Shown here: positions 12,365-62,383 of the stretch, in pieces
How the letters are laid out: the number at the start of each line of letters is the position of its first letter
How positions within the stretch are numbered: position 1 is the first letter of the stretch
From: Candidatus Woesearchaeota archaeon
Lineage (GTDB): Archaea; Nanobdellota; Nanobdellia; Woesearchaeales; GW2011-AR4
Assembly (NCBI GenBank): GCA_016180235.1
Contig: JACPBQ010000002.1
Span: 2,206 to 66,205 of the forward strand
DNA: 64,000 nt
Direction of reading: 5' to 3'
Position numbers and translations under genes: made by a program
Notes under the pieces: model-generated
Database searches by the model: none
The model's input: the letters and a program-made list of their open reading frames with translations, nothing else
What the model was told of the DNA's origin: nothing

Positions 12365-12589
12365 CCCCAGTCAAAAAAACAAAACATATATATAGCGGCG
12401 AAACTAAAATATTAATCAATATTCCGCCGCTATCATGAAAATCAAAGATTTTCAGGACACAAGCGCGAAGCGCTGTGCTGAACTTCGTTCATGCACAAAA
12501 AATCTATGATTTTTGTGTGTGTTCGAAAACACAAACTATTTGTGAATAAATTTTTTGTGTTTTCCGCTATATAAGTTAAAAAGAGGATT

Positions 12590-22394: not shown

Positions 22395-22763
22395 ATGAAA
22401 CCCCTGTTGACAAAAGAAAATTTCAAATGCGACCGCTACTGCGGCGAGTGCTGCAAAAAGATGCTTGTGGCTGTAAGCAATAAAGACATAAAAAACATTG
22501 AAAAGCTCGGATATAAGAAAGAGAGTTTCGTGATGAAAGATGTGTTTAACTCAAAAAGAAAATTCCTGAAAAAGGAGGAGAATGGGTGGTGCGTTTTCCT
22601 GGAAAAAGAAAAAGACGGCAAATACTCCTGCAAAATCCACAAGGACAGGCCGGAAGTATGCCAAAAATACCCTTTCTTTCCCGGAACTCCAAAGGAAATA
22701 AAAAGCTGCCTGCCTGAGGATTTGTATCCGAATGTGTTTTTTAAGATGCCTTCAAGGAAATAA
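22395..22763 (+). CDS. YkgJ-family cysteine-cluster protein (UPF0153)
   Basis: CDRYCGECCKK cluster near the N-terminus plus C..H....C downstream (YSCKIHKDRPEVCQKYP). TATA-like gtttttataattt at 22363-22375. Confidence 0.65.
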   Translation: MKPLLTKENFKCDRYCGECCKKMLVAVSNKDIKNIEKLGYKKESFVMKDVFNSKRKFLKKEENGWCVFLEKEKDGKYSCKIHKDRPEVCQKYPFFPGTPKEIKSCLPEDLYPNVFFKMPSRK

Positions 22764-38083: not shown

Positions 38084-38137
38084 ACATTTAAAAAAGGCCA
38101 ATATTCTCTATCAAAATAAAAAAATCGTAAACTGCGT

Positions 38138-38186
38138 TTCGGGATATCGTAGATATCCCTAGACGCTGTTTTACGGGCACGTAAAA
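38138..38186 (+). promoter_or_regulatory. two-hairpin structured motif, copy 2 of 3 (abuts ileS ATG)
   Basis: GGGATATC-gta-GATATCCC, linker TAGACGCTG, TTTTACG-ggca-CGTAAAA, immediately followed by the ATG at 38187. Confidence 0.7.
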
Positions 38187-41100
38187 ATGGAAAAATATGA
38201 TCCTCTGAATCAGGAACCGGAAATATTGAAGTTCTGGAAAGACAATAAGCTGCATGAAAAAGCCAATCAGAAGAATGCAAAAGGCAAAAAGTTCTATTTC
38301 TGCGACGGGCCCCCATACACTTCCGGCAAGGTGCATCTTGGCACTGCATGGAACAAATCCCTGAAAGATTCCATTATCCGCTATAAGAGAATGCAGGGAT
38401 TTAACGTCCTGGACAGGGCAGGATACGACATGCATGGCCTGCCGACAGAGAATGCAGCAGAAAAAGAGCTCAAGATAAAAAACAAAGATGAAATCATGAA
38501 ATTTGGGGTTGACAAGTTCACAAAAGCCTGCAAGGACTTAAGCATAAGTAACCTTAAGATAATGAACCAGGACTTCATGCGCTTGGGCGTGTGGATGGAT
38601 TTTGAAAATGCATACCAGTCCGTGAGCAAAGAGTACATTGATGGCGAGTGGTGGCTTGTAAGGAAGGCGCACGATGCCAAAAGGCTTTATGAAGGCCTAA
38701 GGAGCATGGCATGGGACTGGAAAGACCAGACAGCCTTGGCAAAGCATGAGCTGGAATATAAGGATGTGAAAGACAAGTCAATTTTTGTAAAGATGCAGGT
38801 AAAAGGCAAAGAAAATGAGTTCCTGATAATCTGGACAACTACGCCATGGACAATAGCATTTAATCTGGGGATTATGGCTCATCCTGATTTTGAGTATGTA
38901 AAATGCAGAGTTGGAAGGGAATTCTGGATTGTCGCAAAGTCCCTTGCCTCTGTTTTCATTTCCGGAGTCGCTGGAAAAAAATTTGAGATAGTGGAGGAAT
39001 TCAGGGGCAGGGAGCTTGAAGGCATTGAATACGTTCATCCTTTTTTTAATGAGCTGAAGGAGCATTATGAAAGATTGAAGTCAAAGCACCCAAAAGTGCA
39101 TGCGGTTGTTTTAAGCGAGGAATATGTTGATACCAGCTCTGGCACAGGCTTGGTGCATATGGCCCCTGGCTGCGGTCCGGAAGATTATGAAGTTGGCCAC
39201 AGGAACAATATCCCGCCCTGGAATCTTGTCGAGGAAGATGGTGTTTATGGAAAAGCTATGGGAAAGTTTGCAGGAAGGCACGCAATAAAGGACAATTATT
39301 CTTTTGTAGAGGATTTGAAGGGAAAAAATGCAGTTGTGGGGGAAACAGAAGTTGAGCACTCCTATCCTCATGGCCAGAGGAGCCACCAGCCCGTCATATT
39401 CAGGACGACAAAGCAGTGGTTCTTTAAGGTCGAAGATATCAAGCAGGATATGATAAGGGAGAATAACGAGATAAAATGGGTTCCGACAGCAGGGTATAAT
39501 GCATTTAATTCCTGGCTGGAAAACTTAAGGGACAATTCAATTTCAAAGCAAAGGTATTGGGGCACTCCTGTTCCCATCTGGAGGAATATTGAGGATGAGG
39601 ATGATTATATTGTTATCGGCTCTATCCAAGAGCTGGAAGAATTATCGGGAAAAAAAGTCGATGAGCCGCATATACCCTGGATAGACAAGATTCTGATAGA
39701 AAAAAAAGGCAGGAAATACAAAAGGGTCCCGGATATCCTGGATGTTTGGGTAGATGCAGGCACAGCCTCATGGAATTCATTGAATTTCCCGCAAAACAAA
39801 GAAAACATGAAAAGGTATTTTCCCGCTGACTTCATTCTTGAGGGCAAGGACCAGATACGCGGATGGTTTAACCTGCTGCACGTCGCTTCAATGATTGCTT
39901 TAGGCAAAAAAAGCTTTGATGCTGCCTACATGCACGGTTTCATCAATGATGCGATGGGCAGGAAGATGTCCAAGAGCCTTGGAAATTATATTCTGCCTGA
40001 AGAAGTCATAGCAAAATACGGCGCTGACACCCTGAGGTATTACATGATTACCGGGGCAAATGCCGGGCTGGACCTGAACTATAATTTTGATGACATGAAG
40101 GTGAAGTACAGGAACCTTACAGTTTTGTGGAATATCCATAATTACATCATTGATTTGGCGAGGAACTCCGGCTTAAACCCAAAGGAAATTAAAATCAAAG
40201 CCGATGATATATCCATCGAGGAAAAATACATATTTTCAAAGCTCAACTCTGCAATAAGGAAAACAACAAAGCTGTATGACGGGTACAAGCTAAATGAGGC
40301 CCCTTTAATTGCTGAAGAATTGTTTTTGGCATTGAGCAGAATATATATCCAGATTACAAGGGAAAAATCAACGGACGAAAAAGCAAGGCAGGCAGTGTTA
40401 TATGCCATATACTATGTTTTTATGGGAATTTTGAAGCTGTTTGCCCCTGCCTCCCCTTTCATAACAGAAGCAATGTACCAGAATCTGAAGAAGGAATTTT
40501 CCCTGGAAGAGGAAAGCGTGCATCTTCTTGGCTGGCCGAAATGCATTGAGAAACTGATTAACAAAGGGTTAGAAGATGAGATGGACTCAATAAGCGAGGT
40601 TACCCAGTCGATATTGTCATTAAGGGAAAAGATAAGCATGGGCCAAAGATGGCCATTGCAGGAAGCCATTGTAGTTACAAAAGATGAGAAGACAATAAAA
40701 GCCGTTGAAAAGCTGAAAAGCATAATAAAAAGGCAGACCAATATAAAAGAGATAGAAATACAGCAGTCATTGCCAGGAATTAAAACAACAATAAAAGCGG
40801 ATTATTCGCAGCTGGGCCCGGATTTCGGAAAGAAGGCCCCGGAGATAATTGCAAAATTGATGGCAGAAAGCCCGGAAACTATCCTTAAGCATATAGAAAA
40901 AGACGGCAAATTCCCGTTAAAGATAGGCAAAGAAACTGTCAATATAGTCAAAGAGCATTTAATCGTGACAAGGAAAGTCCCTGAGCCGTATGTCGAAGGC
41001 TCGTTTAAATCCGGATTTGTTTATTTAAACAAGGACGTTGATGATGAGCTGGAAGCTGAGGGATTTGCCCGCGAACTTATGCGCCGCGTCCAGGCCCTGA

Positions 41101-57962: not shown

Positions 57963-59621
57963 TTATATTTTCCCAGTTATGTCTTCAGGCTTCTCAACAG
58001 GCTCTATTTTCTCCTCCGAATCCTCTTTCTTTCTTTTCAAGACTCTCAGGAATACAAAGCCAACAATTAGAGAAAGAATGACCGCAACTATGGCATAAGC
58101 CATTATCGGCTTCTTTTTCTCGTCTTGCAGAATTGTTACCGGAATTTCCCGGGTTTTTTGCTCCTGTTCTTTTTCTTCTTCCTTCGGTGTGCCAGCAGTT
58201 TCTCCTGAGGTCAACGACACGTTTTCCGCTTTTTTCTCCTCAGTTAGGCTCTTTTTTTCTTCTGTTTCATCCGCACCAGCTACCTTAATGGGTATGCTTT
58301 CTTTTTGGGTAAAAACCTCCTGATATGATGATTGATAATTAGCGGTTATGTTAAAATAATATGCCCCAAAATCAGGCGCAATTACAGAAGAGCTAAAAAC
58401 TCTTATCCTTTCCCCAGGCCTGATGCTGCTGTACGTAGAAGAATGCGGCTCTATTCCCGGGACATCAGCAGCGTAGCTTATTCTGACATTCCTGAATTCA
58501 TTTGGCCCTGGATTAACAAGGTCTGCTATAAGAACTGCCCTTTGCCCCGCAACCACTATATTCTGCGAAAAATCATGCTCAATATGCAGGCAGGTGCAAT
58601 TGACATTTATTGTTTGGCTTTTATGGACTTCCCTCAAAAACTTGCTTATCTTATAGCTGCCGTCTGCATAAAGCTCATATTTCCCCGTGATTAATCCCTT
58701 CAGCTCAAAATCAAGGCTCTTTTTTTCTTTTGGGGTTAATGTCCCGCTCCAGCTCAGCAGCCTGCTGTTCCCTGCAGCTTCTTTTGGCTTTTTAATGACC
58801 AGTATTTTTTCCGGCACTTTTATGCTCAATGCAGTCACGCTAAGCTCATGCTCGTCATTTATATTTTCCAGTATTATGCTCATGTTGAAATTCTCCCCGA
58901 TATCAAATCTGCTTTTGTTTGTGCTATAGCTTATTGCCAGGGAATAATTGTAGACTTTTCCTTCAATGGCGCCTGAAACCGCGGTTTTTGTCTCGACTCC
59001 GTCAAAATAGCTCACATTCGCCACAAGCTCATAATTCCCGGGAGAAATACTTTTGGCTTTGTATGTGCACGTCCTTGTCTGCCTTGGAGAAACATCATGG
59101 TCGAACAAAATGACTCCTCCAATCTGCTTGCATCCTTCTATTTCTGTAAAGAGCAGATTTGGGGGTATAGGCATGGTTGCCGTGACATTCTGCACGGGAA
59201 CGTCCGCAGTATTCTCAAAAGACAGCACTCCTGTAACTTCTTCGTCTATCAGGATATTTTCCTTTTCTATGGTATGCGCTATATCCAGCTTTGATTTTAT
59301 CTGGTAAACTTCGACCTCAGCCTTGTAGACATCATACCAGGGGTCATAATTCCTGTAGGAAAAAGATACATTATTGACGCATATGTCAAATCTGTCCTTT
59401 ATCTTGCATTCCCCGCTTTCCACTATAACTCCTGAAATGTCAATCTCTATGTATACCTTGCTGCTCTGGGGATCTATCTTGAACGCAAACTCTTTTCCGG
59501 ATATGTTTACAGCGTCTCCATCTTCAACAGTATCAGAAAACAGGATCTCTTCATAGATTGAAAATGCATTCGGTGCTATAATAAGCATGCTGAATAAAAA
59601 AATTATCCCTCTTTTTCCCAT
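57963..59621 (-). CDS. cell-surface protein with signal peptide, beta-rich domains and C-terminal TM anchor
   Basis: N-terminus GIIFLFSMLIIAPNAFS, E/K-rich stalk, anchor IMAYAIVAVILSLIVGFVFLRVLKRKK. Confidence 0.55.
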   Translation of the reverse strand: MGKRGIIFLFSMLIIAPNAFSIYEEILFSDTVEDGDAVNISGKEFAFKIDPQSSKVYIEIDISGVIVESGECKIKDRFDICVNNVSFSYRNYDPWYDVYKAEVEVYQIKSKLDIAHTIEKENILIDEEVTGVLSFENTADVPVQNVTATMPIPPNLLFTEIEGCKQIGGVILFDHDVSPRQTRTCTYKAKSISPGNYELVANVSYFDGVETKTAVSGAIEGKVYNYSLAISYSTNKSRFDIGENFNMSIILENINDEHELSVTALSIKVPEKILVIKKPKEAAGNSRLLSWSGTLTPKEKKSLDFELKGLITGKYELYADGSYKISKFLREVHKSQTINVNCTCLHIEHDFSQNIVVAGQRAVLIADLVNPGPNEFRNVRISYAADVPGIEPHSSTYSSIRPGERIRVFSSSVIAPDFGAYYFNITANYQSSYQEVFTQKESIPIKVAGADETEEKKSLTEEKKAENVSLTSGETAGTPKEEEKEQEQKTREIPVTILQDEKKKPIMAYAIVAVILSLIVGFVFLRVLKRKKEDSEEKIEPVEKPEDITGKI

Positions 59622-59654: not shown

Positions 59655-61142
59655 TTACTTTATTACGACAACGCCTGGGGATTTTTCCAGCTCTTCTCTG
59701 GCAAATTTTAGTTTGAGCTTATTTTCTGAATAGATTGTAAAGATTTTTTCTCCTTTTGTTGTTTTATCGTTGATATGCTTATGCAGATATATGCCCGCAC
59801 CATTGTCGGCTGGGGCTCCTGCGACCCTTGCTAATCTTGCTATAATTTTGTTGTCTATTTTTTTGACAATTCCTTTCTTTGCTGACTTGACATCAAACTT
59901 GAATCTTCCTATTTTTATATCCTCAGGGTCAAAAATTTTGCCATCCTGGGCTTTTATTATCTCTTTCATTTTTTTATAGGCCTTCCCTGAATCTAAAATT
60001 TCCTCTGCCTTGCCTTTGCTGTCTTTGATTCCAGCCATTTTAAAGAGTTCGCCAGCCATTGCTATGCATTTTTTTTCCAGGTCAGGGGGCCTTCTCTTGT
60101 CTCTCCTCAAAATCCACAGGACATCCCTTGCCTCCAATGCAGGCCCTATGCCGTTTCCTATAGGCTGCTTTCCGTCAGTGATAATGACGCTGACATGCTT
60201 CCTCAGCCTTTTCCCCACTTCATCAAACAATTTTTTTAGCTTTAAAGCCTCCTGTCTGTTTTTGACTTTGCTGCCATTGCCTATCGGTATGTCTATCAGA
60301 ATGTGAGTGCTTGACACGGAATATTTCTTGGCCATTATCGAAGCAAGCAGCTGGCTTTCCGCGTCAATCCCCAGAGTTTTCTCAACGCCTATTATCTTGT
60401 CATCTGCAGGAGCAAGGTTCAAAGAGCCGCCCCAGACAATGCATGCATTTGTTTTTGCGATGATTTCTTTCATCCTGCTGATAGGGAAGGAGACTTTTGC
60501 AAGAACCTCCATGGCATCGGCAGTTCCTGCAGGGCTTGTTATGGACCTGCTTGATGTCTTTGGCATTGTAAGGCCTGCTGCCGCAATTATAGGCACTAAA
60601 ACCATCGTGGTCCTGTTACCGGGAATTCCGCCAATGGAATGCTTGTCAATCACCGGATATTTGTCGAGCTTCAGTTTGTCCCCGTGGTTGACCATAGCTT
60701 TTGTAAGCATTATTGTCTCGTTTATTGACATGAGGTTTGTATAGCACGCAGCAACAAAGAAAGTAAGCTCTGAGTCGCTGAGCTTGTTATGCACAATATC
60801 CCACACAATCTGGTCTATCTCCTTCCTGTTCAATGTTTTGCCATCGAGCTTTTTTCTTATAAAATCTATTGAAAGGGGCTTTCTGGCAAGCGCTATGCTG
60901 ACTTTATCATTCTTTTTTAAGTTTAAAGAATCTATGACTTCCTCATATACCCCTATTCTTCCTTCCGGGACTACTTTGCTGCTTTCGGCTATATTCGCGA
61001 CTACGGTCTCAACTCTTTTTCCCTTGTTTATCTTTATCCTGTCAAGATGGTGTATATCGAACTTGATAGCGTCTTTAATGTTAAGCACAGCTACTAAAGG
61101 CCCGCCGGTTGCAATGTCCATGTCTTTTATTTTCAATTTCAT
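59655..61142 (-). CDS. AMP phosphorylase (thymidine phosphorylase family with archaeal N-terminal extension)
   Basis: MKLKIKDMDIATGGPLVAVLN N-domain. IDKHSIGGIPGNRTT (TP-family phosphate loop). 495 aa. GGTGA RBS. Confidence 0.8.
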   Translation of the reverse strand: MKLKIKDMDIATGGPLVAVLNIKDAIKFDIHHLDRIKINKGKRVETVVANIAESSKVVPEGRIGVYEEVIDSLNLKKNDKVSIALARKPLSIDFIRKKLDGKTLNRKEIDQIVWDIVHNKLSDSELTFFVAACYTNLMSINETIMLTKAMVNHGDKLKLDKYPVIDKHSIGGIPGNRTTMVLVPIIAAAGLTMPKTSSRSITSPAGTADAMEVLAKVSFPISRMKEIIAKTNACIVWGGSLNLAPADDKIIGVEKTLGIDAESQLLASIMAKKYSVSSTHILIDIPIGNGSKVKNRQEALKLKKLFDEVGKRLRKHVSVIITDGKQPIGNGIGPALEARDVLWILRRDKRRPPDLEKKCIAMAGELFKMAGIKDSKGKAEEILDSGKAYKKMKEIIKAQDGKIFDPEDIKIGRFKFDVKSAKKGIVKKIDNKIIARLARVAGAPADNGAGIYLHKHINDKTTKGEKIFTIYSENKLKLKFAREELEKSPGVVVIK

Positions 61143-61147
61143 TTACT

Positions 61148-61210
61148 TCACCTGAAAATAAAAGGCTTGAAAAATTTCAATTTTTCATTGTCTTTGATTT
61201 TGAGTTTCAT
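61148..61210 (-). CDS. mini-ORF u1 (20 aa) re-encoding the AMP phosphorylase N-terminus
   Basis: ATGAAACTCAAAATCAAAGAC.. encodes MKLKIKDNEKLKFFKPFIFR. Its TGA stop lies inside the AGGTGA RBS of the AMP phosphorylase gene. Confidence 0.35.
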   Translation of the reverse strand: MKLKIKDNEKLKFFKPFIFR

Positions 61211-61232
61211 TTTTTAAATAAAATTTCAAAAT

Positions 61233-61283
61233 TTAAGGCTTGAAAAACCTTTGTTTTTCACTGTCTTTGACTTTTAATTTCAT
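61233..61283 (-). CDS. mini-ORF u2 (16 aa), paralog of u1
   Basis: ATGAAATTAAAAGTCAAAGAC.. encodes MKLKVKDSEKQRFFKP. Confidence 0.35.
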   Translation of the reverse strand: MKLKVKDSEKQRFFKP

Positions 61284-61297
61284 TTTCCTGCAGAACT

Positions 61298-62383
61298 CTA
61301 TTCTTTTTCCTCTTCATATATGTTCACGAACGCCACAAGCAAGGCCAGCAATATAGGCCCTATCATCACTCCTATAAATCCAAGCAGTTGCAATCCGCCA
61401 ACAACTCCCAGCAGGACAAGGACAGGGTGCAAGCCTGACTTGTCACCTATTATCTTTGGCTTCAGGATATTGTCTATTGTGCCGACAACAAAAATCCCGT
61501 AAATTATGAGAAGAACTCCCTTTATAATGAAAGTTGGGTCATCAGCGGTATAGCCATTTAATATTAGGGATAATGCTGCAGGAAGCCATATTATAGTCGA
61601 GCCCACATAAGGTATAAAAGAGGCAAATATCATGACCAGGCCCCACAGCAAAGGCGTGGGCAATCCAAATATGAAAAATCCTATGCCTCCCAAAGTTCCT
61701 TGTATTATTGCTATGATTATGCTTCCGTAAATCACCGCATATGTCATGTCGCCGAGCTTATTAATCACCCTCTTCCTGTATTTCTCCTTCAAAGGCAAAA
61801 GCCTTTCAACTTTGTTTATCAGAAGATGGCCATCCCTGAAAAGGAAAAACATAATGAATAATGTGATAAACATATGCAATACAAAGACAGGTATGGATAC
61901 CAGTATATCGGATATTTTTCCTGTAATCCTTGTAGTGGCTTCTTTTATAGTGGTATCAAGATAATATTTTAGCTGGGGATCACTTGCTTTTTCAGCAAAA
62001 TAATGCATCAATTTGCATGCTGATTTATCTGCAGGCTGGCATTCTGATGAAAGAAGCTGCACATTTGATGATTTCTGCTTTGAAAGGATGTATGTGGCAT
62101 ATGCCTCTTTTGATACTGTGTTCAGGACAAAAAACAAAGGTATGGTTATCACCAAGATGACAAGAAGTGACGCGATAAAGGCAGATGCATTTTTATTCGG
62201 GATTCTTTTGAGGATTTTTCCATATATCGGGTAGAATATATACGAAAAGACTATCCCCGTAAGCAAAGCAGTAAGGAACGGCTTTATTATAAGGAAGGAT
62301 ATGGCAATCAGGGTAAGAAAAATAATGGCAAAAAACGCTTTTTGGTAAAGTTTTGATTCCATTTTGTTGTTATTGTTGCTCAT
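61298..62383 (-). CDS. AI-2E family transporter (PerM/UPF0118)
   Basis: 361 aa with 8 TM helices. WGLVMIFASFIPYVGSTIIWLPAAL matches the family's conserved IP-x-(V/I)G segment. Confidence 0.7.
   Translation of the reverse strand: MSNNNNKMESKLYQKAFFAIIFLTLIAISFLIIKPFLTALLTGIVFSYIFYPIYGKILKRIPNKNASAFIASLLVILVITIPLFFVLNTVSKEAYATYILSKQKSSNVQLLSSECQPADKSACKLMHYFAEKASDPQLKYYLDTTIKEATTRITGKISDILVSIPVFVLHMFITLFIMFFLFRDGHLLINKVERLLPLKEKYRKRVINKLGDMTYAVIYGSIIIAIIQGTLGGIGFFIFGLPTPLLWGLVMIFASFIPYVGSTIIWLPAALSLILNGYTADDPTFIIKGVLLIIYGIFVVGTIDNILKPKIIGDKSGLHPVLVLLGVVGGLQLLGFIGVMIGPILLALLVAFVNIYEEEKE

Follow-up and report, generated by a model that had tools for sequence, protein, structure and literature searches.

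Why should a gene be preceded by two short copies of its own beginning? The question is raised by the AMP phosphorylase gene of a Candidatus Woesearchaeota archaeon (assembly GCA_016180235.1), which lies on the minus strand of the 64,000-nucleotide stretch of contig JACPBQ010000002.1 analysed here as a whole and called the window. Two tandem mini open reading frames (mini-ORFs), u2 (distal) and u1 (proximal), encode the first seven codons of the gene again just upstream of it, and the original prediction took them for conserved leader peptides that control this gene. The comparative data described below led us to a different reading, which we hold with slightly better than even confidence: the mini-ORFs would belong to a hairpin cassette that is duplicative and mobile-like, present here as two tandem units, and would act as translational relays. 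This cassette is apparently undescribed, no description of it having been found in the literature, and it is common in Woesearchaeota, which belong to the DPANN archaea, a group of uncultivated organisms with tiny genomes whose gene regulation is almost unknown.

The two mini-ORFs and their surroundings

The source genome of the window, G000 (1.04 Mb, roughly 81% complete), was compared with Candidatus Woesearchaeota and Nanoarchaeota metagenome-assembled genomes (MAGs) from groundwater and sediments, all of these assemblies being incomplete; other labels beginning with G or L stand for genomes and loci of these relatives. Reading of the minus strand together with the ORF listing bore out the three predicted starts of the type MKLK(I/V)KD, at 61283, 61210 and 61142, in both position and sequence. 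Mini-ORF u2 extends from its ATG at 61283 to a TAA at 61233-61235 and encodes MKLKVKDSEKQRFFKP, whereas u1 extends from 61210 to a TGA at 61148-61150 and encodes MKLKIKDNEKLKFFKPFIFR. The gene itself starts at 61142, begins with MKLKIKDMDIATGG and was identified as AMP phosphorylase by TIGR03327 (561 bits, cut-off 535). The u1 stop codon does lie inside the AGGTGA motif (61148-61153), 5 nt 5' of the AMP phosphorylase ATG, as had been noticed. The underlying direct repeat, previously put at about 52 bp, is also real but slightly longer, since a repeat search delimited two 59-nt copies (61155-61213 and 61228-61286) that share 81% identity at a distance of 73 nt; a third, incomplete copy (32 nt) covers the start of AMP phosphorylase itself. 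Tandem Repeats Finder reported no repeat at the units, because these are too few and too diverged.

Beyond the direct repeat, each unit contains a perfect 8-bp palindrome (TGAAAAAC-AAAG-GTTTTTCA in u2 and TGAAAAAT-TGAA-ATTTTTCA in u1), the two palindromes differing by a compensatory change from C:G to T:A, and the segment following the palindrome is in each case the reverse complement of the next start. For u1, this inverted segment (61153-61169 versus 61119-61135) covers 17 nt with 88% complementarity. The general layout of a unit can be written as X1 - [A CAA (T/C)(G/A)AAAA.. loop ..TTTT(C/T)(A/G) AGC] - X' - spacer - X2, where X denotes the local target sequence: X1 and X2 repeat it directly, and X' repeats its end in inverted orientation. 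The corresponding features are listed below, with scores from the two covariance models (R1 and R2) described in the next section.

61211..61283, minus strand: distal cassette unit u2, 73 nt, made up of X1 (ATGAAATTAAAAGTCAAAGACA), core hairpin, X' and an A/T-rich spacer (R1 79.3 bits, R2 42.5 bits)
61233..61283, minus strand: mini-ORF u2, 16 codons plus TAA, ending 22-25 nt before the u1 ATG
61241..61260, minus strand: u2 core palindrome with flanks ACAG...AAGC (inverted repeat; core covariation)
61226..61237, minus strand: u2 inverted segment X' (CTTAAATTTTGA), whose predicted partner in the fold is the start copy of u1
61143..61210, minus strand: proximal cassette unit u1, 68 nt, made up of X1 (ATGAAACTCAAAATCAAAGACA), core hairpin, X' and a spacer of Shine-Dalgarno (SD) type (R1 84.3 bits, R2 42.9 bits)
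61148..61210, minus strand: mini-ORF u1, 20 codons plus TGA, its stop lying in the SD 5 nt before the ATG
61168..61187, minus strand: u1 core palindrome with flanks ACAA...AAGC (inverted repeat; core covariation)
61153..61169, minus strand: u1 X' (AAGCCTTTTATTTTCA), 5' arm of a predicted stem masking the real start (repeat, fold, covariation)
61148..61153, minus strand: SD-like AGGTGA, placed with the AUG in the 15-nt loop of the predicted mask stem
61119..61135, minus strand: AMP phosphorylase codons 3-8 (TGAAAATAAAAGACATG), which would form the 3' arm of the mask stem (inverted repeat, covariation)
59655..61142, minus strand: AMP phosphorylase gene, 495 aa (ORF, TIGR03327)
61298..62383, minus strand: AI-2E family transporter gene, 361 aa (ORF, NCBIfam AI-2E/YtvI matches, synteny)

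A multi-copy cassette at the starts of unrelated genes

Model R1, built from eight units and run over 401 genomes of the order Woesearchaeales, matched units not only at AMP phosphorylase but also ahead of rpl13, cspA, dnaK and other genes, where the 5' flank of the core copies the start of that particular gene and the 3' flank is its reverse complement. A second, gene-agnostic model restricted to the core (R2, built on 25 cores) found matches in 117 of the 401 genomes at E<=0.05 and in about 70 at E<=1e-3, the E-values of so short a model being rough. Copies reached 14 per genome and formed tandem arrays with periods of 50-73 nt, and a phylum-level sample added three more genomes from another order of the same class. 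Within G000, a regex search for the unit and its sub-motifs gave no units beyond the two at AMP phosphorylase; the "TGAAAATC..GATTTTCA" sites of this genome belong to a separate multi-hairpin intergenic cluster and not to the cassette. An Rfam scan of window positions 60500-62000 returned no family, its best match being at chance level (12.5 bits, against a gathering score of 86).

The constant part of the cassette is an oriented core of 25-30 nt, with an A/T-rich stem of 7-9 bp, a loop of 2-5 nt and then AGC. It is followed by an inverted target copy of 5-13 nt, X', and preceded by X1, which in the window corresponds to the first 22 nt of AMP phosphorylase. Among 89 gene-agnostic cores, 47% had their upstream flank directly repeated over at least 10 nt (3.3% at random positions of the same loci) and 40% had an inverted copy of at least 5 nt (0.3% at random positions), while a direct repeat of at least 9 nt together with an inverted copy of at least 3 nt occurred in 45%, against 0.3% at random. 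An A directly precedes CAA in 78 of the 89 cores, and a same-strand ORF start was found 14-38 nt downstream in 33 of them, compared with 2 of 89 for the opposite orientation. The length of the duplicated flank ranged from about 7 nt (the tRNA gene of G050) to more than 60 nt (cspA of G412), and identical cores at different loci were seen in G194.

The core hairpin is maintained by strict Watson-Crick covariation. Paired cells amount to 95.5%, six of the eight pairs vary on both sides, the outer two pairs appear in all four combinations (TG/CA, CA/TG, CG/CG and TA/TA), and G-U is absent from all 198 cells; none of 500 shuffles was as good. Judged by eye, neither a K-turn nor a bulge-helix-bulge intron geometry appeared to match the conserved ACAA/AGC internal loop.

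Around 130 contexts of the element were read, with downstream genes assigned by eye except where Pfam was run. Targets confirmed by Pfam include ribosomal proteins L13, L15e, S19, S27e and S28e, CspA, Hsp70, ATP synthase and a metallophosphoesterase, to which S4, S12, L40e and FtsZ can be added by eye; the family thus sits at the 5' ends of many unrelated and mostly highly expressed genes. Several targets were used repeatedly in different families (metallophosphoesterase three times; cspA, dnaK and rpl13 twice each). In the metallophosphoesterase (MKIL..GD-xHGD), the element occupies one same codon in L138 (G100:C15), L154 (G115:C8) and L117 (G194:C1), which belong to three families, and two of these three cases are perfect arrays of three units with a period of 70-71 nt. 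Targets other than protein genes were found too. In G050, the 7 nt that open a tRNA gene are repeated (GCGGAG-A-core-CTCCGC-spacer), twice in tandem and then followed by GCGGAGATGCCGGAGTGG / GCGGAGATGCC; tRNA 3' ends are also used; and one class directly follows TATA boxes (TTTATA-CAAT..AGC-ATAAA), the whole promoter with its B recognition element (BRE) and TATA box being duplicated. Control specific to AMP phosphorylase, as first proposed, is at odds with this range of targets.

Two further observations concern related layouts. At locus L277 (G209:C43, ~22681-22709), the core and a second hairpin lie inside an apparent tRNA D-loop (GCGGGGATGCCGGAGCGGT, then the core, then CAAACGGGCACGG) with no target duplication, in an arrangement that looks intron-like; ARAGORN, which misses the intron-rich tRNAs of DPANN archaea, calls no gene there. 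In the window itself, a different hairpin core (GGGATATC-gta-GATATCCC) is present ahead of ileS (38125-38190, plus strand), where the order, with hairpins at 38138-38186, is CGTAAA - hairpins - TTTTACG - ggca - CGTAAAAATG. As this again follows the scheme X - core - inverted X - spacer - X, the layout is common to more than one hairpin family in G000.

Predicted start masking, relay frames and turnover at AMP phosphorylase

Alignment of 14 AMP phosphorylase units revealed that X' and X2 can form a stem of 12 pairs in which 96.4% of the cells are paired. Compensatory double changes affect 7 pairs (28 cells), a level that none of 500 shuffles reached, and controls in which the partner was slid gave pairing of at most 60%. 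As in the core, pairing is strictly Watson-Crick, with G-U in a single one of 168 cells, and two pairs display all four Watson-Crick types facing synonymous third positions of the real gene. One compensatory pair separates G000 from its sister species G001 (codon 5 ATA/ATC versus CTTTTATTTT/CTTTGATTTT).

The inverted segment is also matched to its own gene, with 11.4 of 14 positions agreeing with its own next start versus 9.4 of 14 with foreign starts, and none of 20,000 permutations reached the observed sum. More specifically, X' was closer to X2 than to its own X1 in 12 AMP phosphorylase units versus 1 (13 informative, p=0.003), and the same preference was found at other genes (21 versus 7 units, p=0.013). 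In G139 and G205, unusual codons of the real gene (AACCGTCAAGG and TTCCGTGTG) are matched by X' (CCTTGACGGTT and CCACACGGA) and not by X1. Within the window, X' of u2 scored 10 of 14 matches to the next start versus 9 of 14 to its own copy.

Folding of the 206-nt leader gave -42.9 kcal/mol (z=-3.2; none of 200 shuffles as good), and the predicted structure contains the hairpins of both cores, with the X' of either unit pairing to the start that follows it. The predicted X':X2 stem of u1 has 13 bp and -12.5 kcal/mol and places the SD and the AUG in its 15-nt loop, compared with -8.0 kcal/mol for the alternative X1:core:X' hairpin.

Regarding the frames, the upstream one ends at, near or in the next start in 20 of 27 units from many genomes (10 overlaps of ATGA type, 7 stops no more than 12 nt upstream and 3 in-frame fusions), whereas 2,000 dinucleotide shuffles gave 7.7 +/- 2.1 and never more than 15. 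The frames are therefore kept open towards the next start, and the coupling geometry of the original prediction holds well beyond this locus, although the leader-peptide control of AMP phosphorylase attached to it is not supported. In most proximal spacers of the AMP phosphorylase type, GGTGA or GAGGT was found 7-10 nt before the real start. Real starts other than ATG are found at the upstream stop in L249 (L40e, TTG) and L197 (GTG, in a GTGA overlap). The AMP phosphorylase ATG of L160 (metagenome contig Ga0209541_10002268, ~10 nt around locus position 701) has decayed to ATT and exactly overlaps the TAG of the relay (AATTAG), which makes this locus a candidate for a gene now dependent on reinitiation at a non-canonical start.

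Coupling by termination and reinitiation at ATGA/TGATG overlaps has been documented (Huber et al. 2019, PMC6728339; 2023, PMC10666635), and experiments in Haloferax and E. coli showed that reinitiation requires overlaps or very short gaps and is almost abolished by about 20 nt (PMC10666635). In the window, the u1 stop falls close to the next start (5-nt gap) but that of u2 does not (22-nt gap). With 22-25 nt left between the end of the u2 frame and the u1 ATG, the relay from u2 to u1 is probably broken and u2 would be a decaying distal unit. AMP phosphorylase can presumably also use its own SD.

The arrangement goes far beyond chance, for it recurs in G001 and in at least 15 further AMP phosphorylase loci. 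Upstream ORFs in relatives, which the original prediction had proposed to look for, do exist; however, the majority of Woesearchaeal AMP phosphorylase loci carry no unit. In those unit-free loci, the stop codon of the transporter gene adjoins or overlaps the AMP phosphorylase ATG, often as ATGA. The AI-2E transporter and AMP phosphorylase genes are syntenic across the order, with ATGA overlaps in L020, L080, L081 and L084 among others, which suggests that these functionally unrelated genes form an ancestral translationally coupled pair. In L197, G026 and G371, the transporter stop overlaps the ATG of X1, which shows X1 to be the start used originally, still set in the former coupling context.

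Unit number varies among close relatives within a tandem period of 68-73 nt. Two units are found at the identical position in G000 and G001 (83% protein identity), a single one in L159 (a metagenome relative at 84% identity) and at least three in G006, where at least 2.5 near-identical units were read before the contig terminates within the array; G002, G003 and G026, the latter from another family, have one each. The insertion position changes as well: in G371 the element lies at +6 of AMP phosphorylase and not at +22, so this gene was a target at more than one site, depending on the lineage. On the AMP phosphorylase tree, 10 changes are required to explain where the element is present, and well-supported branches impose at least 6 of these gains or losses; precise loss of a unit should be easy because direct repeats flank it.

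Origin and function of the cassette

Taken as a duplicative cassette and a translational relay, the element would have the following history. It would spread through a duplicative, copy-templated DNA process in which the target is copied both directly and inverted, a proposal based on the target-derived arms, the near absence of G-U pairs, the microhomology at A/ACA and the tandem amplification. After insertion, translation would start at X1, the original start, with the old stop/start junction with the upstream gene retained; ribosomes would run through the cassette, melting the X':X2 stem over the first codons of the real gene, terminate at or beside the real start and then reinitiate with the help of the spacer SD. 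The cassette would be tolerated at protein genes because the relay preserves expression of the real gene and possibly controls it. The mini-ORFs would thus be translated relays whose amino acid sequence is irrelevant, u1 occupying the relay position in the window and u2 representing a more decayed distal unit. An insertion that turns a leaderless AUG into an internal one was considered as a general explanation and is not supported as such, as a TATA box about 30 nt from the X1 ATG was found in only 2 of 25 units.

Several results weigh against this reading. No insertion enzyme or mechanism was found, Y1/HUH being the transposase family profiled; its domain (PF01797) is present in 44 of 117 element-positive and 83 of 284 element-negative genomes (odds ratio 1.46, p=0.12, in incomplete MAGs). 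Recent identical full units at different loci are not clearly documented beyond the identical cores of G194. Every member of the clade formed by G000, G001, L159 and L160 bears the element, which is therefore inherited vertically in that lineage. In addition, the 155-nt element region is 85% identical between G000 and G001, far above the four-fold degenerate sites of AMP phosphorylase (51%) and AI-2E (55%); a recombination tract was rejected as the source of this identity, as synonymous identity is not elevated in adjacent codons. The preference of X' for X2 over X1 points to a function at the level of the host and not to mere tolerance. In both G000 and G001, the u2 frame ends too early for a relay through both units. 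Finally, the units are phylogenetically non-independent, so some of the statistics are inflated.

There is also a more ambitious version. The cassette would be a self-tailoring mobile leader, whose arms, copied from the gene start that it enters, build at once the relay ORF, the 5' hairpin and the mask stem, and which the host would retain on its most highly expressed genes, those for ribosomal proteins, chaperones, CspA, ATP synthase and AMP phosphorylase, as a shared input for translational control or coupling. We offer this version tentatively and regard it as possible but doubtful. If true, it would define a new class of archaeal repeat with target-derived arms generated by templated copying and not by the staggered cut of a transposase.

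By analogy with known systems, the element appears to work like a mix of a palindromic repeat of the REP/MITE type (repetitive extragenic palindrome; miniature inverted-repeat transposable element), an integrative element with a surrogate gene end and a termination-reinitiation relay. With the bacterial REP, BIME and REPIN sequences, palindromes mobilised by the Y1/HUH transposase RAYT, it shares a hairpin of 20-40 nt with a short conserved tag beside the stem, multiple and often tandem or clustered copies, and stems that drift with compensation; the ACAA-stem-loop-AGC core, in up to 14 copies, is such a tagged palindrome. In contrast to them, it is archaeal, shows no association with a Y1 transposase (among the 14 genomes that have at least five copies, 6 lack PF01797, these being incomplete MAGs), lies at gene 5' ends in sense orientation whereas REP lie between 3' ends, and comes with local target sequence copied both directly and in inverted form. 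Gene-cotranscribed MITEs such as Correia/NEMIS, ERIC and RUP are likewise small non-coding repeats beside genes, patchy in distribution, which fold as RNA and can alter expression. However, the cassette has no fixed terminal inverted repeats, because its arms X1 and X' are target sequence and differ at every locus; its constant part is only 25-30 nt; and its target duplication is variable (7 to more than 60 nt), while that of MITEs is short and fixed. None of the roughly 130 contexts read contained a longer version of the element, transposase profiling having covered the Y1 family. A Woesearchaeal genome figures among the most MITE-dense archaea in a survey (PMC11602168).

As in integrative elements with a surrogate gene end (attP in tRNA or protein genes), the target stays intact through a duplicated gene end, the insert is flanked by direct repeats of gene sequence and tRNA ends are among the targets, but the cassette measures only ~45-70 nt, carries neither integrase nor cargo, has the extra inverted copy and is found mostly at 5' ends. 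For coupling, the comparison is the synthetic "bicistronic design" leader. There, as in natural termination-reinitiation, a short upstream cistron ends at the downstream start, the SD lies within the upstream frame and the translating ribosome unfolds structure at the real start; the upstream cistron of the cassette differs in being a partial copy of the downstream start, made by a repeat and reiterable, and its coupling is deduced from geometry. Leader-peptide attenuators (trpL, hisL, ermCL) also place a short upstream ORF over alternative hairpins before a metabolic gene, but the cassette has no regulatory codons, conserved peptide or terminator logic, is not tied to one pathway and occurs at tRNAs and promoters as well. 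It lacks defining features of a leader-peptide attenuator, of a REP-RAYT system and of a classical MITE, and it matched no Rfam family.

What looked like a gene-specific leader peptide is thus one instance of a repeat present in about 30% of the sampled Woesearchaeales genomes, which remodels core genes of high expression at their 5' ends. For annotation, this entails duplicated starts, false N-terminal extensions, real starts other than ATG and contig breaks inside arrays; for mobile-element biology, no standard scheme of transposition accounts for target-derived arms in both direct and inverted copy; and for translation, the cassette would offer a natural, repeated analogue of "bicistronic design" coupling in which to study reinitiation and start masking in archaea.

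Among the alternatives, the one that survives best is a co-opted cis-regulatory RNA device, in which X' masks the real start and X1 competes as an anti-mask, the ACAA/AGC internal loop and hairpin responding to a protein, the ribosome or temperature and serving as a control input shared by many highly expressed genes. We judge it unlikely, though it is the rival to be taken most seriously. It would account for conservation limited to the element (85%, against 51-55% at neutral sites), for the strong covariation of hairpin and X':X2 and the tuning of X' to X2 over X1, for the strictly sense orientation 14-38 nt ahead of starts, for the enrichment of ribosomal proteins, CspA, Hsp70 and ATP synthase among the targets, and for the closeness of the alternative folds (-12.5 versus -8.0 kcal/mol). 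Nevertheless, the distribution is patchy, a given gene bearing the element in only some lineages and each genome having a different small set of genes; the element is also found at tRNA ends and just after TATA boxes; near-zero G-U is unusual under selection at the RNA level; and there is neither an Rfam family nor a candidate binding factor.

Less probable still is a promoter or operator module acting at the DNA level, a "mobile promoter" whose tandem units would multiply the promoters of strongly expressed genes, the palindrome being bound by a transcription factor or belonging to a promoter cassette. The class located right after TATA boxes, with its duplicated BRE/TATA, several A/T-rich, TATA-like spacers and the strictly Watson-Crick complementarity are in line with it. 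In G000, TATA-like hexamers peak sharply at -32 to -27 from start codons (427 matches in six positions, over a background of ~20-35 per two positions) and SD-like motifs are a small minority, which indicates mainly leaderless mRNAs. Measured against that peak, the TATA-like motifs of the spacers are misplaced, at about -6 to -14 with the best candidate at -26, and spacers of TATA type were accordingly rejected as internal promoters; at the other end of the unit, the scarcity of TATA boxes some 30 nt from the X1 ATG (2/25) argues in the same direction. Moreover, unlike a dimeric operator, the stem drifts in sequence as long as it stays paired, arm and loop lengths vary and cores differ within one genome, and the conserved CAA/AGC flanks are asymmetric.

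The reading from which this work started, two conserved leader peptides of 16 and 20 aa that regulate AMP phosphorylase specifically under selection on their amino acids, is now very improbable, comparative data having largely refuted it. In the window it seemed attractive, as the differences within the seven shared codons are synonymous or conservative and EK..FFKP is common to both peptides; the FKP frame is in fact the commonest (8 of 12 units). We compared each copy with its own real start in 17 units of the AMP phosphorylase type and found differences in a proportion of 18:12:33 for codon positions 1, 2 and 3, the third-position excess being explained by the fact that one partner of each pair is a real gene under purifying selection. 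By codon, 27 differences were synonymous and 20 non-synonymous (e.g., MGLKVRD, MRFKVKY and MRLKTKD). The copy ATGAAACTCAAAATCAAAGAC, shared by G000, G001 and G006, equals the real start of G006, those of G000 and G001 having drifted synonymously. After codon 7, the invariant TTCAAGC is read in all three frames (FKP / FQA / FSS), and u2 of G001 is frame-shifted relative to u2 of G000. Selection is therefore not on the peptide sequence, and the claim that the peptides are conserved has to be abandoned. To this can be added that the core precedes unrelated genes with unrelated "peptides", as well as tRNAs, and that most AMP phosphorylase loci do without any unit.

A plain local tandem duplication of the AMP phosphorylase 5' end in neutral decay, which the original prediction had also considered, agrees with the 68-73-nt period and with the one to at least three copies among relatives, but is refuted by a core that is foreign to the gene and is found again at dozens of other loci, in 117 of 401 genomes, by conservation far above synonymous sites, and by covariation and maintained frames, so that it can be dismissed.

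Two minor observations complete the description of the window and its genome. Directly downstream of AMP phosphorylase (57963-59621, minus strand) there is a 552-aa ORF with a signal-like N-terminal segment, a C-terminal membrane anchor and a Glu/Lys-rich tail, which matched no NCBIfam family. A second repeat family consists of A/T-rich hairpins that follow one another between genes in clusters of 2-4. It occupies nine or more sites of G000, among them window positions 12436-12560 (plus strand), C5:139137, C6:4171, C6:40657, C6:123899, C9:175660, C9:256993, C9:327971 and C1:83288. Its hairpins read cATGAAAATC-nnn-GATTTTCAGGACAC and then CGAAAAT..ATTTTCG, the first of them resembling the cassette core without CAA/AGC flanks or target copies, and similar clusters are present in G025 and G160.

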